A DNA stretch of 64,000 bases from an uncultured Oscillibacter sp. (lineage in GTDB: Bacteria > Bacillota > Clostridia > Oscillospirales > Oscillospiraceae): assembly GCF_947654275.1 (NCBI RefSeq), contig NZ_CANTJS010000003.1:46835-110834 (forward strand), in the 5' to 3' direction. The translations under genes were made by a program, and so were the position numbers. Shown in pieces: positions 2,997 through 8,150 of this stretch. Every line of letters begins with the position of its first letter. The stretch's first letter is position 1. Below the pieces are notes generated by a model that searched no databases, was not told the DNA's origin, and saw nothing but the letters and a program-made list of their open reading frames with translations.

Positions 2997-4847
2997 TCAC
3001 TGCACGTACAGCCCCATCACCTTTTTATGGGGCTCGGTGAAGGCCCCCAGCTGAATATCCATGCCGATCTCAAAGGCCCGGTCCCAGGGGAAGCGGTAGT
3101 CCTCCAGAGCCGTGCCGCCCCAGCCCCGTTCCTCATAGGGCTCCAGAGAGACGGCGAAGTTGCTCCGCTCCAGATTCCGGAGGACGTCCCCGGCGGCGGC
3201 GTCCATGCCGGTCTCCAGCCGGGTCTGAATGGCGGCCCGGTCGATATCGGGAACCCAGAAGTTGTTGGGGTCCCCTGCCAGATCGTTCCGGATGTAGGTC
3301 AGCAGATCGTTCCGGACGATGTTCTTGTAGCAGAAATCCTTGACCACGCTGTCCGCCAGAGTCCGGGCCCAGGCCCGGTCCATGGAGTCCGTCACGGCCC
3401 CGCGATTCAGGGCGGCATACCGGGCCGCGCCGTGGCTCAGGGCGGTGCCGGTGACAATGGCCATGTCCAAAAATCCCGCGTAGCTGAGGAGCCAGCCCAA
3501 TTCGCATTCCTTCGTCAGGGCCTGGTGGAAGGCAGTACCGTAAGTCCCGTTGCTGGCGTCGATGAGGACGGTGGGCCGCTGGTTCGCCCGGTTGTCCTGA
3601 AGGGCCTGAATCAGCTCGGTGTAGTAGGCCTTCTTCTGCCCCTCTTCAACGGGCTGGGTCAGCACCAGAATCTGCAAACCGGCGGACAGATGGTTAGAGG
3701 ACTGGTCCGTCAGGCGGAAGAAGGCGAAGTGCTCCGCCATGATTTCGGTGAGGGGCTGGAAATCGTAGTCACAGGCGGGCCGGTCCTCGGCGCCGCCGAA
3801 ATACCGCACCGCCGCCGTGCCGCTCCACGGGACACGGGAATCGGACTCATCCAGATACATCCGGGCCACCGCCTTAAAGGCCAGGTCGTCCACCCCGGAG
3901 AGGAGCCAGTCCAGGGCTTCCCCGTCTGCGCCGGTCCGGAGCCCCCTGCGCAGGTAGGCAATTTCATTTTTCTGAATGCAGTCCTCCAGAGAGGAATCGT
4001 CGATGCCGATGAGAAGCCGGAATCCCTCGTGGCCCGGCTGGCTCAAAATCCGCTGGACCTCGTCGGAAAGGCGGAGCTTCTGTTCCCGGGACTGGATGAA
4101 CTGGGAGACAAAGCGCTGGGGCTGGAAATAGTCATCTGCGCTGACCGCCTCCATCTGCCGGGCCGCCCCGTCGTAGGGGTCCGCCCCGCCGGGGCCCCGC
4201 CAGTAGGTTTCCAGAACGTTTTCGATGGTCAGATCCGTCTCCGCCAGTGTCTCCCGAGGCTGGGCCCCAAAGGCCCGCATCCAGTTGTAGTGCTCCAGAC
4301 GGGCCCCCTGATAGCCCACGGTGACATTGGCCAGCCGCATGACGGAATCCAGCAGCCAGACCACATTGTCCGGGTCCTCCGCCAGCACCGCCAGCAGGTT
4401 TTCCAGCAGCTGGGAGACGTGGACGGAGCCGCCCTCCGGCAGGGGGAGGACACAGGCCTCCGGGGATAAATCCCGGGAGCTGACCAGTCCCCCGTAAAGA
4501 AGCTGGTCCAGGGAGAGAATATAACGGTCGCAGCCCGTCGCCTCCTGGTCCAGCACCCACTGGAAGAGCTTTGCCCGGTCGCCGTACTGGGTGCCGTTCT
4601 CGTTGAGTGGCTGACCGTCCAGGGCGGTGCGGTACAGGTCCCGGTCCGGCATGGTCAGGGCATAGCCCAGGGACTCCGCCAGATATACCACCCGCTCCAC
4701 GTTATCCGGCCGGTCGTCCAGAGGCACATAGGCCACAGTTTTTCCGCTCCCGTCTCCGGAGGCGTCCGGTTCCGGTTCTGTCCGCACCGCGCCGCAGCCC
4801 GTCAGGGTCAAAAGGGCCAGCAGCAGCGAAAGAAAACGTTTTTTCAT
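2997..4847 (-). CDS. DUF4127 family lipoprotein
   Basis: Lipobox LTLTGC, then VAYVPLDDRP, LSLDQLLYGGLVSSR and LLIGIDDS, as recalled for DUF4127. ATG at 4847 after a GAGG RBS. Confidence 0.75.
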   Translation of the reverse strand: MKKRFLSLLLALLTLTGCGAVRTEPEPDASGDGSGKTVAYVPLDDRPDNVERVVYLAESLGYALTMPDRDLYRTALDGQPLNENGTQYGDRAKLFQWVLDQEATGCDRYILSLDQLLYGGLVSSRDLSPEACVLPLPEGGSVHVSQLLENLLAVLAEDPDNVVWLLDSVMRLANVTVGYQGARLEHYNWMRAFGAQPRETLAETDLTIENVLETYWRGPGGADPYDGAARQMEAVSADDYFQPQRFVSQFIQSREQKLRLSDEVQRILSQPGHEGFRLLIGIDDSSLEDCIQKNEIAYLRRGLRTGADGEALDWLLSGVDDLAFKAVARMYLDESDSRVPWSGTAAVRYFGGAEDRPACDYDFQPLTEIMAEHFAFFRLTDQSSNHLSAGLQILVLTQPVEEGQKKAYYTELIQALQDNRANQRPTVLIDASNGTYGTAFHQALTKECELGWLLSYAGFLDMAIVTGTALSHGAARYAALNRGAVTDSMDRAWARTLADSVVKDFCYKNIVRNDLLTYIRNDLAGDPNNFWVPDIDRAAIQTRLETGMDAAAGDVLRNLERSNFAVSLEPYEERGWGGTALEDYRFPWDRAFEIGMDIQLGAFTEPHKKVMGLYVQ

Positions 4848-4897
4848 CAAAACCTCTTTCTATCCTGTAAAAAATGTCCCGATTCGCTTTTGTGCTC

Positions 4898-4963
4898 CTG
4901 ATATCAGGGATACCCTTGTGCTTCCCGCTCACCGCGGGGCGGGAACACGAAAAGAAACCGGGC
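4898..4963. repeat. 66-bp structured direct repeat, copy A
   Basis: CTGATATCAGGGATACCCTTGTGCTTCCCGCTCACCGCGGGGCGGGAACACGAAAAGAAACCGGGC; 57/66 identical to 5260-5325. Confidence 0.95.
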
Positions 4964-4977
4964 TTTGTGACAAGCGG

Positions 4978-5232
4978 TTATTCCTGGGTTTCAAAGGAAA
5001 ACAGTATGGTGCCGCAGTTACGGCAGATTGAACCGGAATACCAGGGGAGCGCGGAGAGGGACTTGGGCGAAAAAGCGGACGTGGAGTTGTCTCCGATGGG
5101 ACGCAGACGGACGGTGTCTTTGGGGCGTTGGAAATTTTTAAAGTCTCTCTGTTCGGGGGTCCAAAACAGGTAGCCGCGAGGGGAATACACAGAGCCTGGC
5201 TCCATTGTGCTACCGCAATTGGGGCAGTTCAT
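4978..5232 (-). CDS. small zinc-ribbon-like protein (PF20097/DUF6487-like)
   Basis: 84 aa with N-terminal CPNCG and C-terminal CRNCG; GGAGG RBS. Confidence 0.75.
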   Translation of the reverse strand: MNCPNCGSTMEPGSVYSPRGYLFWTPEQRDFKNFQRPKDTVRLRPIGDNSTSAFSPKSLSALPWYSGSICRNCGTILFSFETQE

Positions 5233-5259
5233 GGAATAATCTCCTCCGTTTTGGCGTTT

Positions 5260-5325
5260 CTGATATCAGGGATACTCTTGTGTTTTCGGCCCCAAGGGGG
5301 GCGGGAACACGAAAAGAAACCGGGC
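5260..5325. repeat. 66-bp structured direct repeat, copy B
   Basis: CTGATATCAGGGATACTCTTGTGTTTTCGGCCCCAAGGGGGGCGGGAACACGAAAAGAAACCGGGC. Confidence 0.95.
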
Positions 5326-5338
5326 CTGAAAAACAAGA

Positions 5339-5392
5339 AATTAGGAACCAGGAATTCTGAACCAGTCAATTCCTCATTCCTAATTCCTGAAG
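5339..5392. repeat. AGGAAT(T/G) heptamer repeat cluster forming an imperfect hairpin
   Basis: AATTAGGAACCAGGAATT...AATTCCTCATTCCTAATTCCTGAAG. The last 25 nt are the exact reverse complement of 7707-7731. Confidence 0.85.
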
Positions 5393-5395
5393 GGT

Positions 5396-5764
5396 TTAAA
5401 GGCCGAAGCCGCCCAGATTCAGCCCGCCGGTCACGCTGTCCATGGCTGCATCCATGGCCTCCCCGGCCTGGCGCAGGGCCTCGTTGACTGCGGAGACCAC
5501 CAGGTCCTGAAGCATTTCCACGTCCTCCGGGTCCACGGCTTCGGGCTTGATGGAGAGGGAGACCACCTCTTTTTTGCCGTTCGCCACGGCCTCCACCGCG
5601 CCGCCGCCGACGCTGGCGGTGAAGGTGCGGGCCTCCACCTCCTCCTGAGCGGTGTTCATCGCCTCCTGCATCTGGGCGATTTTCTGCTGGACCTCCGCCT
5701 GACGCTGTGCGCCGGTGGCTTTCATGCTGCCGCTGCTGAAGCCGCGGCGTGCGCTGTAACCCAT
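5396..5764 (-). CDS. ybaB: YbaB/EbfC nucleoid-associated protein
   Basis: ASVGGGAVEAVANG and DPEDVEMLQDLVVSAVNEA; directly downstream of dnaX. Confidence 0.93.
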   Translation of the reverse strand: MGYSARRGFSSGSMKATGAQRQAEVQQKIAQMQEAMNTAQEEVEARTFTASVGGGAVEAVANGKKEVVSLSIKPEAVDPEDVEMLQDLVVSAVNEALRQAGEAMDAAMDSVTGGLNLGGFGL

Positions 5765-5794
5765 AATCGTTTCTCCTTTCTGTGCGTTTGCGTT

Positions 5795-7696
5795 TTAATC
5801 AATGTGGATATTTTCATATTGACTGCCGAACTGCAGCAGCCGTTTCCGGTTTTCCTCCGGGTCCGCGCTGGGGGGCGCGCCCTCCTGAAAAAGGATGCGC
5901 TCCGGCGCGGCGGCCAGCTTCTCCAGCTCCTCCCCCAGAATGCTCCGCACCCGGTCGTTGTCCAGCCGCCCCAGGGTTACCTCGTCCGGGGCGTAGACGG
6001 TCAGCAGGCCGTCCGAGAAAACGCCGCCGCACATGGTCAGGAAGGAGCTGTACATAGGCGGCAGGCGGTTCTTGCAGATATCCGTCAGGGTCCGCCACCA
6101 GTTTGCCTCCAGCTGGAGGGGCGGAGCGGAGGCCTTGCCGCCGGACGGCGGGGAGTCCGGGCGTTTCGGCGGCGGGGGCTCCGGCGCTGGAGAGGCCTTT
6201 GGAAGGGGCTCCTCCGGCATGTCCTGAATGCTCCGGTCCGCCTCCCGGGGAGACGGCGGAGCTTCCGGCGGCGGAGGGGCTTCCGGCATGAAGGACGCCT
6301 TGGGGAGAGGCTCCTCCGGGACGTCATAAATCTTCCGGTCCTCCTCCTCGGGAGGCGGCGGGGGCTCCTCCGGCAGGGGGGGCAGCTCCTCGTCCAGGCT
6401 GTCATGGACCCTCCGGGGGCCGTCTGCCGGGGGTTTTTTAGTTCTTTCCGTTCTTTCCGCCTTTCCCGGCCTTTCCGACAGGGGCGGGGCCTCGTCCCGG
6501 GAATGGACAGGGGGCGGCGGTTCCGCCGGGGAGGAAACGGCCAGCTGTGCCCGGGCGGCAAGGCGGTCCTCCAGCCGCTGAATGCGGGCGTCCAGGGCCG
6601 ACAGGTCCCCGGAGAGGCTTTCGTCGCACAGGCGGAGCAGGCAGAGCTCCGTGTCCGTGCGGCGGTTGGCGCTGTTGTAGAGCTCCGCCGCCGCCTGCTG
6701 GAGGGTGGAGGCGATATAAAGGAAGCGGTTTCCCGCCGCCTTCCGGCTGAGCCGGTCCAGAGCGGCGGCGTCATAGCCGCCGGACAGCAGCGCGCCGCCG
6801 CCTTCAGGGGCGGTCTTCCGCAGCAGCAGGTCCCGGGTGAGGGTGGAGAGCTCGGAGAGAACCGCTCCCATGTCCTTTCCGCCGCTGTAGAGCTGGTCCA
6901 GCAGCAGCAGGGCCGACTGGGGATCCCGGTTCAGAATGTGCTCCATCAGCCGGGCGGTCTGGAGATTCCCCGCCAGGCCCAGCACCTCCAGCACGGCGGC
7001 GCTGTCGACGACGCCCTCGCTGGCGGCGCACTGGTCCAGCAGGCTCAGGCCGTCCCGGAGGGCTCCGTCCGACAGGCGGCTGAGGAGCTCCGCGCCGTCG
7101 GCGGTCAGCTGGATATGCTCCTGTCCGGCCACATACAGCAGCCTCTGCGCGATGGCCTGAGGCGGAATGCGGCGGAAGGAATAGCGCTGGCACCGGGAGA
7201 GGACGGTGGGCAGGACCTTGTGGAGCTCCGTGGTGGCCAGAATGAACATCAGGTGCTCCGGCGGCTCCTCCAGAATTTTCAGCAGGGCGTTGAAGGCCGC
7301 GTCGGTGAGCATGTGGACCTCGTCGATGATGTAGACCCGCTTTTTCACCTGAGCAGGGGAGTAAATGGCCTTGCTCCGCAGCTCCCGGACCTGGTCCACG
7401 CCGTTGTTGGAGGCGGCGTCCAGCTCCCAGACGTCCAGGAAATCCCCCTTCTCAATGCCCAGACAGGAAGGGCATTGACAGCAGGGGTCCCCGTCGACAG
7501 GGTGCTCACAGTTCACGGCCTTGGCCAGAATTTTGGCGCAGGTGGTCTTGCCGGTGCCTCGGGTGCCGGTGAAGAGATAGGCGTGGGAGGTTCGGCCCTC
7601 GGCCACCTGACGGCGGAGATTTTCGGTGATGTGCTCCTGGCCGATGACGTCGGAAAAGGTTTTGGGCCGCCATGTTCGATAGAGTGCCTGATACAC
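5795..7696 (-). CDS. dnaX: DNA polymerase III subunit gamma/tau
   Basis: YQALYRTWRPKTFSDVIGQEH, Walker A GTRGTGKT, zinc-binding Cys cluster, IIDEVHML, SRCQ; Pro/Glu-rich linker. Confidence 0.97.
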   Translation of the reverse strand: MYQALYRTWRPKTFSDVIGQEHITENLRRQVAEGRTSHAYLFTGTRGTGKTTCAKILAKAVNCEHPVDGDPCCQCPSCLGIEKGDFLDVWELDAASNNGVDQVRELRSKAIYSPAQVKKRVYIIDEVHMLTDAAFNALLKILEEPPEHLMFILATTELHKVLPTVLSRCQRYSFRRIPPQAIAQRLLYVAGQEHIQLTADGAELLSRLSDGALRDGLSLLDQCAASEGVVDSAAVLEVLGLAGNLQTARLMEHILNRDPQSALLLLDQLYSGGKDMGAVLSELSTLTRDLLLRKTAPEGGGALLSGGYDAAALDRLSRKAAGNRFLYIASTLQQAAAELYNSANRRTDTELCLLRLCDESLSGDLSALDARIQRLEDRLAARAQLAVSSPAEPPPPVHSRDEAPPLSERPGKAERTERTKKPPADGPRRVHDSLDEELPPLPEEPPPPPEEEDRKIYDVPEEPLPKASFMPEAPPPPEAPPSPREADRSIQDMPEEPLPKASPAPEPPPPKRPDSPPSGGKASAPPLQLEANWWRTLTDICKNRLPPMYSSFLTMCGGVFSDGLLTVYAPDEVTLGRLDNDRVRSILGEELEKLAAAPERILFQEGAPPSADPEENRKRLLQFGSQYENIHID

Positions 7697-7706
7697 CGGA
7701 TCACCT

Positions 7707-7836
7707 CTTCAGGAATTAGGAATGAGGAATTTTTTGCGCCGCGCCGGAGCCAGGCGGTCCCGGAAGCCGGACCGCGCGGACACGGCCTCAATTAGGAATG
7801 AGGAATTAGGAGTTAGGAGTTAGGAATTAAGAATGG
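7707..7836. repeat. two AGGAAT(T/G)/AGGAGTT heptamer tracts upstream of dnaX
   Basis: CTTCAGGAATTAGGAATGAGGAATT (7707-7731) and AATTAGGAATGAGGAATTAGGAGTTAGGAGTTAGGAATTAAGAATGG (about 7790-7836). Confidence 0.9.
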
Positions 7837-8013: not shown

Positions 8014-8150
8014 TCCTCCGTACGCAGCTGCGGAGCCGGCGCCCTCACGGCACATGAAACATCCCGCTTAATGCTGCTCGGTTCCCCGCCTGACATGGTT
8101 CGCGGGCATCCATTGCGCGAGACCGGCTCCGCAGCTGCCTGCGGAGGACT
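8014..8150 (-). ncRNA. ffs: signal recognition particle RNA (small bacterial type)
   Basis: The minus strand carries the SRP core AACCATGTCAGG-CGG-GGAA-CCG-AGCAGCAT and a long terminal stem, followed by T7. Promoter TTGCCA-N17-TAAAAT; canonical position upstream of dnaX. Confidence 0.92.

Follow-up and report, generated by a model that had tools for sequence, protein, structure and literature searches.

The question raised by this locus is what kind of element surrounds a small zinc-ribbon gene with two hairpin-forming direct repeats, and how the gene came to lie between them. The locus is found in a stretch of 64 000 nucleotides from an uncultured Oscillibacter sp., the whole of which is referred to here as the window. 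From the letters alone (the sequence-only reading), the repeats had been taken for a site of cassette recombination resembling attC in its fold, or else for a tandem cis-regulatory RNA switch. Our analysis indicates that the locus is a known kind of mobile DNA and not a new recombination site or riboswitch. We consider it very probable that the repeats represent a MITE, a miniature transposable element related to an IS1595-type insertion sequence but devoid of a transposase, and that its two copies, both in the same orientation, bracket a captured DUF6487 gene.

Anatomy of the repeats

All genes around the locus are on the minus strand, where the order is SRP RNA, dnaX, ybaB, an AT-rich hairpin with its T tract (5388–5325), repeat B, DUF6487, repeat A and DUF4127. 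The features, in window coordinates, are the following:

2997–4850, minus: DUF4127 lipoprotein gene, the conserved neighbour downstream of ybaB in the genus (Pfam PF13552, E = 4.9e-68)
4868–4875, minus: probable target-site duplication, downstream copy, ATTTTTTA
4877–4963, minus: copy A of the probable MITE, complete, 87 nt (covariance model R1, 105 bits); its interior consists of a GC hairpin and the CCTGATATCAGG hairpin
4877–4898, minus: 3' terminal repeat of copy A, GGAGCACAAAAGCGAATCGGGA, with 2 mismatches to the family consensus
4942–4963, minus: 5' terminal repeat of copy A, GCCCGGTTTCTTTTCGTGTTCC
4964–4977, minus: 3' flank of the cargo, CCGCTTGTCACAAA, homologous to the DUF6487–ileS spacer of sister species
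4978–5232, minus: DUF6487 zinc-ribbon gene, 84 aa, the cargo (Pfam PF20097, E = 5e-11)
5233–5247, minus: ribosome-binding site GGAGGAG of DUF6487 and spacer, left limit of the captured segment
5246–5325, minus: copy B of the probable MITE, ~80 nt (covariance model R1, 83.8 bits)
5304–5325, minus: 5' terminal repeat of copy B, intact
5327–5334, minus: probable target-site duplication, upstream copy, GTTTTTCA, identical with the T tract that ends the ybaB terminator
5336–5388, minus: AT-rich hairpin of heptamer repeats that forms the ybaB terminator stem; outside the MITE and part of another dispersed repeat family
5396–5764, minus: ybaB/ebfC, conserved upstream neighbour (Pfam PF02575, TIGR00103)
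5795–7696, minus: dnaX
8030–8129, minus: SRP RNA, the sole match of the window to Rfam 15 at the gathering threshold

The figures first given for the repeats were reproduced: 4898–4963 and 5260–5325 are identical at 57 of 66 positions and lie 362 bp apart, and eight of the nine differences (positions 16, 23, 26, 28, 31, 33, 34, 35 and 37) fall inside 15 nt. Without gaps the repeat extends to 79 nt (4885–4963 and 5247–5325; 82% identical, with the spacing of 362). Its conserved blocks both occur exactly twice in the window, where shuffles predict 0.0–0.2 occurrences, and these are also the only two occurrences in the entire 3.05-Mb assembly. The other elements of the original description were found as well, namely the 84-aa CxxC gene between the copies, a minus-strand gene after each copy, the CTGATATCAG palindrome, the inner hairpin and the outer stem of ~20 bp in copy A. 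A scan of 4700–5900 for sigma-70 promoters and terminators was likewise empty for promoters, as had been claimed. The statement that no U tract follows the stem is correct for the plus strand and incorrect for the minus (gene-sense) strand, on which AUUUUUU follows the outer stem of copy A.

What had been described as a long stem is the pairing of two terminal repeats (GCCCGGTTTC..GTGTTCC with GGAGCAC..GAATCGGGA in copy A), and the inner hairpin corresponds to a GC-rich palindrome found in the interior of one MITE subfamily. The local terminal repeats, CCCGATTC and GAATCGGG, deviate from the consensus, CCCAATTC and GAATTGGG. In comparison with the fuller 5' copies at two metagenomic loci (L066 and L068), copy B breaks off ~17 nt short of the end of its 3' terminal repeat, where the ribosome-binding site of DUF6487 follows directly. 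The upstream copy of the target-site duplication is placed 1 base outside the terminal repeat, as in the rest of the family. Around the B..A unit the two duplication copies match at 5 of 8 positions, against 6 of 8 in the single-copy allele described below; copy A taken on its own has no matching flanks (TGTCACAA versus ATTTTTTA).

The terminator stem of ybaB belongs to a distinct family dispersed in this genome (G000), with tandem-heptamer hairpin stems of the form (AGGAATT/AGGAATG/AGGAGTT)n-loop-(AATTCCT)n. Genome-wide, 108 arrays of at least three units and 26 clear hairpin pairs were counted; a second hairpin of this family lies upstream of dnaX, at about 7707–7830.

The ybaB–DUF4127 site in relatives and strains

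Synteny of dnaX, ybaB and DUF4127 was found in all 29 relatives examined. In every one of them the terminator after ybaB is a plain GC-rich one, and between it and DUF4127 there is a ribosome-binding site but neither the repeat nor DUF6487. It follows that the small gene was inserted at this site, as were both repeats.

Contigs that encode an identical YbaB fall into two classes. Most have the MITE–DUF6487–MITE arrangement, and those of three close strains (L056, L058 and L064) have a single MITE copy, located between the terminator hairpin and DUF4127; a single copy is present at the site in a sister species (G141) too. The single-copy allele is flanked by ATTTTTCA and ATTTTTAC; these represent an 8-bp duplication, now degenerate, of the T tract that belongs to the ybaB terminator. 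Both alleles co-occur in one mouse-gut sample, X9 (Logan contigs, eight runs). No excision joint was detected in the assembled contigs of samples holding the strain of the window, a kind of data in which rare excision is invisible. The idea that the unit is mobile and cassette-like is borne out by the empty, single-copy site in close strains and by the finding, detailed below, that the same ends bracket other short genes elsewhere. That the single-copy allele might be a fresh recombinant of A and B was considered and rejected, as its central loop hexamer differs from those of both.

Across strains whose flanks differ by 2–5%, the 290-nt cargo shows 0–1 SNP, as would be expected if the gene was gained recently and then spread. 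The inner halves of B and A are invariant, as is the gene, and the outer halves of both copies differ according to the strain background. Several alleles are mosaic, so homologous recombination among strains is frequent.

In three other species (L030, L035 and L041) the ybaB–DUF4127 spacer measures 330–390 nt and is occupied by runs of unrelated perfect palindromic hairpins. Hairpin elements seem to have settled in this spacer repeatedly.

A probable MITE family with 22-nt terminal inverted repeats

The MITE is ~87–95 nt long (87–94 nt in ten distinct copies), a length into which no ORF fits. The terminal inverted repeats of the family are 22 nt long, with the consensus TCCCAATTCGCTTTTGTGTTCC ... 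GGAACACAAAAGCGAATTGGGA, and the target-site duplication is of 8 bp, in AT- or T-rich DNA. Terminal inverted repeats of 22 nt together with 8-bp duplications mark these elements as probable products of a DDE transposase of the IS1595 family.

A blastn search with the repeat gave no match in 60 relatives, and exact gapped-pattern scans of genome and metagenome contigs returned only a chance match (Halothiobacillus, L049) and the same locus (L065). The element looked unique in these early searches because the patterns were anchored on the CCCTGATATCAG hairpin, a feature of the local subfamily only; in the copies of L066 and L068 the CTGATATCAG hairpin is swapped for other sequences. A covariance model (R1), built from the local copies and the copies flanking L066 and L068, detected the element in 10 of 165 genomes of the genus. 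A search for the 22-nt terminal repeat, allowing at most 3 mismatches, found it in 45 of these 165 genomes and in 42 of 401 genomes of the family, which represent 31 of 134 genera; the control with the reversed pattern produced one match in the genus search and one in the family search. The existence of only two copies had been named as an outcome that would speak against a mobile unit. It holds within this genome, which has just the two adjacent copies, and is contradicted in the genus by both the covariance model and the terminal-repeat pattern. Up to 6–10 end matches per genome were observed (G169, G583). MITE copies elsewhere adjoin unrelated genes, in either orientation and with target duplications, and terminator T tracts also host other copies.

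Pairs of ends delimit elements of 87–94, 151, 335–338, 382–386, 527–529, 810–852, about 1800–1900 and 3924 nt. Among 27 distinct two-ended elements, the 8-bp duplication located 1 base outside TCCC/GGGA is perfect in 17 and matches at 7 or more positions in 23, whereas none of 81 shifted control windows reached 7 of 8. The base just outside TCCC/GGGA is mostly the same letter at both ends of these 27 elements (G,G in ten cases and C,C in six). As a consequence, the two ends do not have the same outermost base, and the element has a polarity.

Full-length and cargo-carrying relatives

Two 3.9-kb elements have the same ends (L139, G092:C9:264529-268452; L140, G150:C15:2-3910). They encode a 396-aa protein of the IS1595 family which is 100% identical between G092 and G150, two different species, and this identity points to recent horizontal transfer. 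The protein matches NCBIfam NF033547 (IS1595) with 87.8 bits (cut-off 75) and Pfam PF12762 (DDE_Tnp_IS1595) with 37 bits (cut-off 27), and has an N-terminal zinc ribbon (NF050000 zinc-binding domain). On the strength of these matches it is a candidate transposase for the ends described here. Its closest annotated relatives, the transposases of ISCaje5/6, ISClsp5 and ISSag10, are at most 28% identical to it. The L139 element is flanked by a perfect TTTTAGAA duplication; the flank of L140 was not scored, since that element begins at a contig end. As passengers the 3.9-kb elements carry genes for an Mrr-type nuclease (Mrr_cat) and an ECF-type sigma factor, and a 245-aa ORF without Pfam match, which we take to encode a putative anti-sigma protein from its position after the sigma factor gene. 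A 1.9-kb deletion derivative, L138 (G142), retains only the last 42 codons of the transposase gene.

Relatives of 335–1892 nt carry a 71-aa zinc-ribbon ORF, DUF3781, XRE regulators or a sigma/anti-sigma pair, and no transposase. Cassettes of 382–386 nt have an 80-aa DUF3781 ORF, those of 335–338 nt a 71-aa CxxC..CxxC ORF, those of 527–529 nt either a 157-aa ORF or an XRE regulator, and the 810-nt cassette a 180-aa XRE regulator. Single-gene cassettes of this kind were seen at L141, L142, L145, L130 and L116; L144, L134 and L115; L117 and L119; and L143, with perfect 8-bp duplications in most. A relationship between the 71-aa zinc-ribbon cargo and DUF6487 was considered and could not be demonstrated. 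Taken together, the elements bracketed by these ends are built like an IS family accompanied by MITEs and mobile insertion cassettes of its own. In the genome of the window no transposase homologue was found by tblastn (the assembly is 93% complete and the gene could be missed).

Origin of the DUF6487 cargo

The segment between the two copies was shown to be copied from the gene that normally precedes ileS. Every species representative that possesses a DUF6487 orthologue has it immediately upstream of ileS, as do many metagenome contigs; the usual order is ORF170–DUF6487–ileS, and loci L010 and L151–L154 are examples of the ileS-linked gene. The DUF6487 gene of the window is 62–77% identical to such genes in sister species (77% in the best comparison, with the ileS-linked gene of one sister species). 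The part homologous to the ileS locus starts at the ribosome-binding site, continues for 14 nt beyond the stop codon and stops exactly where repeat A starts, so that the cargo is a 290-nt segment comprising the ribosome-binding site, the gene and 14 nt of 3' spacer. To the spacer CCGCTTGTCACAAA correspond TAACCGCTTACCAT... in L146 and TAAACACTTGTCATAA in L009. This genome has retained its own ileS-linked DUF6487 (G000:C6:33401-33622), which is 39% identical to the copy in the window.

In several species a T-box-like leader, made up of AGAGTGGTACCGC and a terminator after it, precedes DUF6487–ileS, and this suggests that the function of the small gene is tied to isoleucyl-tRNA synthetase; a search with Rfam at the gathering threshold gave no T-box in the region of the ileS-linked DUF6487 of this genome. 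In the sister-species loci L009 and L146–L150, next to the usual position of DUF6487, the spacer that separates the ribosome-binding site of ileS from its start codon (GAGGAGGAACACAAAAATGGAC) is identical to the innermost 11 nt of the terminal repeat (GGAACACAAAA), a match with a post-hoc chance probability of about 2e-4.

Relatives of the gene flanked by diverged copies of the element were found at two further loci, L066 (95% identity) and L068 (79%; here the 5' copy is truncated). Both are on short contigs. L066, a Logan contig of 1077 nt, contains a radical-SAM-like gene, which is absent from G000, then a variant 5' MITE, the 95%-identical DUF6487 and a copy A of the window type; it may be a chimera of the assembly, and otherwise represents a third genomic context.

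Route of gene gain and mobility

Because a sister species has the single MITE and the cargo is nearly invariant, the single copy is taken as ancestral and the gene as a later gain. Gain and loss of the gene by recombination between MITE copies is the most likely course. A single MITE would have settled first in the T tract of the ybaB terminator. DUF6487 and the second MITE copy would then have entered by Campbell-type homologous recombination, the partners being the resident MITE and MITE-bearing DNA that carried DUF6487, and the new arrangement would have passed from strain to strain through ordinary homologous recombination. The two direct copies could recombine with each other and so delete DUF6487 again. 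The pattern of invariant inner and variable outer halves would be left equally by a Campbell-type event or by later exchange between strains.

A less likely form of the second step would be transposition of the whole MITE–gene–MITE unit by a transposase acting in trans. Such a composite transposon, itself devoid of transposase, would have been cut as a 450-nt unit at the outer ends of B and A and pasted into the T tract, and the single-copy allele would be the result of a later B/A deletion; the repeats would still be MITEs, and only the route of arrival would change. Mobilization of the DNA between two miniature elements has been shown for the Tn3-derived TIMEs (PMC4133298), the ends studied here bear many kinds of cargo, element-flanked DUF6487 occurs in two or three different contexts, and B and A have each kept their outer terminal repeat. 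However, the sister species G141 already has a single copy at the exact site with identical flanks, the 8-bp flanks of B..A match at only 5 of 8 positions and the loop of the single-copy allele is unlike that of A or B. Moreover, the whole unit in L066 is without a flanking duplication and no transposase was found in this genome. We regard this route as unlikely. Fork stalling with template switching at the hairpin, and a tandem MITE dimer that received the gene later, were also considered.

The MITE copies in the genome of the window are probably immobile relics. That the pair is instead a working vehicle, MITE–DUF6487–MITE having been moved between species by IS1595-type transposases supplied in trans, appears improbable to us. 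If it were so, the 11-nt identity between GGAACACAAAA and the ileS spacer would be end mimicry or a target choice that led to gene capture, and the hairpins might have been co-opted as terminator or leader structures which set the expression of DUF6487 and DUF4127. Any regulatory effect of the relics is a side effect of a strong hairpin placed past the terminator T tract and before each ribosome-binding site.

Regulatory RNA, recombination site or local duplication

We had to weigh the possibility that the repeats are a tandem cis-regulatory RNA, i.e. a riboswitch or a protein-binding leader placed before each of two genes. Both copies do occupy 5' regions of minus-strand genes, copy A has a predicted fold of −42 kcal/mol (z = −2.8), and GUGUUCC can pair with either of two downstream segments. 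On the other hand, copy B folds like shuffled sequence (z = −1.0), and no relevant Rfam match was obtained in 4700–5500 even with E up to 10. Pairing was said to be largely kept between the copies: in a hand-drawn three-way junction 78% of the cells are indeed paired across 12 distinct copies, yet covariation does not exceed that of shuffled controls, and the structured-RNA reading was dropped on this ground. The RNAalifold consensus was also poor. Furthermore, the element is missing upstream of DUF4127 in 29 relatives, including at the orthologous position in sister species, and its copies in other genomes stand beside unrelated genes in either orientation, with target duplications. We consequently judge a riboswitch very unlikely.

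The chances of the attC-like site are slightly poorer still. In this reading the repeats would be folded sites at which an integron-type or other site-specific recombinase inserts and excises cassettes. The limits of the repeat do fall at the foot of a long imperfect hairpin, there is an empty site that has exactly one copy, and both forms occur together in sample X9. However, the RYYYAAC/GTTRRRY core is absent (the sense-strand ends read GCCCGG.../...TCGGGA), and the one locus in this genome does not form an array. Support from a linked recombinase was not obtained either, as contig C3 has no match to the tyrosine (PF00589) or serine (PF00239) recombinase families, and the contigs of samples with the strain of the window contained no excision joints. 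The 22-nt terminal inverted repeats of whole MITEs, the 8-bp duplications and the IS1595-family transposase of the full-length relatives explain the anatomy instead.

A plain local tandem duplication of an intergenic hairpin, with no mobile element involved, would account for there being two copies only in this genome, 362 bp apart, and is rejected as the least probable reading of all, given that relatives with the same ends and target duplications exist in dozens of genomes and that the intervening DNA does not originate from this locus.

Implications

With the two MITE copies recognized, the idea of an attC-like site or tandem riboswitch is replaced by an ordinary one that can be tested. The elements described above form an IS1595-type family in mouse-gut Clostridia, which ranges from 87-nt MITEs through single-gene cassettes to a 3.9-kb element with transposase, nuclease, sigma and anti-sigma genes. 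For annotation, it follows that hairpins such as these should be masked as MITEs and should not be called structured RNAs. For the study of gene evolution, the locus offers a clean natural case in which DUF6487, a housekeeping-linked gene normally co-transcribed with ileS, was copied between two MITEs, and the MITE-bracketed copy is currently segregating in the population.

Comparison with known systems

Integron attC sites and gene cassettes share with the present locus imperfect hairpin units between short genes and the presence or absence of a single small gene. The unit described here differs in having no core sites, integrase, array or attI, and its limits are transposon ends with target duplications.

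Members of the IS1595 family have in common with the full-length element the DDE_Tnp_IS1595 domain, the N-terminal zinc ribbon and the 8-bp target duplication. A target duplication of 8 bp is characteristic of the IS1595 family (ISfinder). Compared to annotated members, the protein is at most 28% identical and the element has an Mrr-type nuclease and sigma/anti-sigma genes as additional passengers.

Known bacterial MITEs, such as the Correia elements of Neisseria, RUP of pneumococcus and MITEAba12 of Acinetobacter (PMC6382973), are similarly ~90–150 nt long, with terminal inverted repeats and no transposase. They also share with the present family short target duplications, an intergenic position that is often next to terminators, a fold into a long hairpin and the need for a related IS in order to move. 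The family described here differs from them in that its ends are those of an IS1595-type element of gut Clostridia, in its 0–10 copies per genome and in the GC-rich internal palindrome of one subfamily. In a limited literature search we found no published description of this IS1595-type MITE family.

A further parallel is offered by mobile insertion cassettes (MICs) and by composites of miniature elements, with TIMEs (PMC4133298) and the qnrS2 cassette (PMC5444012) as examples. In these systems IS-type ends likewise surround passengers without a transposase, and two miniature elements likewise enclose a segment of DNA, which they can also move. The present case is distinguished from them by the truncation of one inner end and by its cargo, which is a housekeeping-linked zinc-ribbon gene rather than a resistance or plasmid module.
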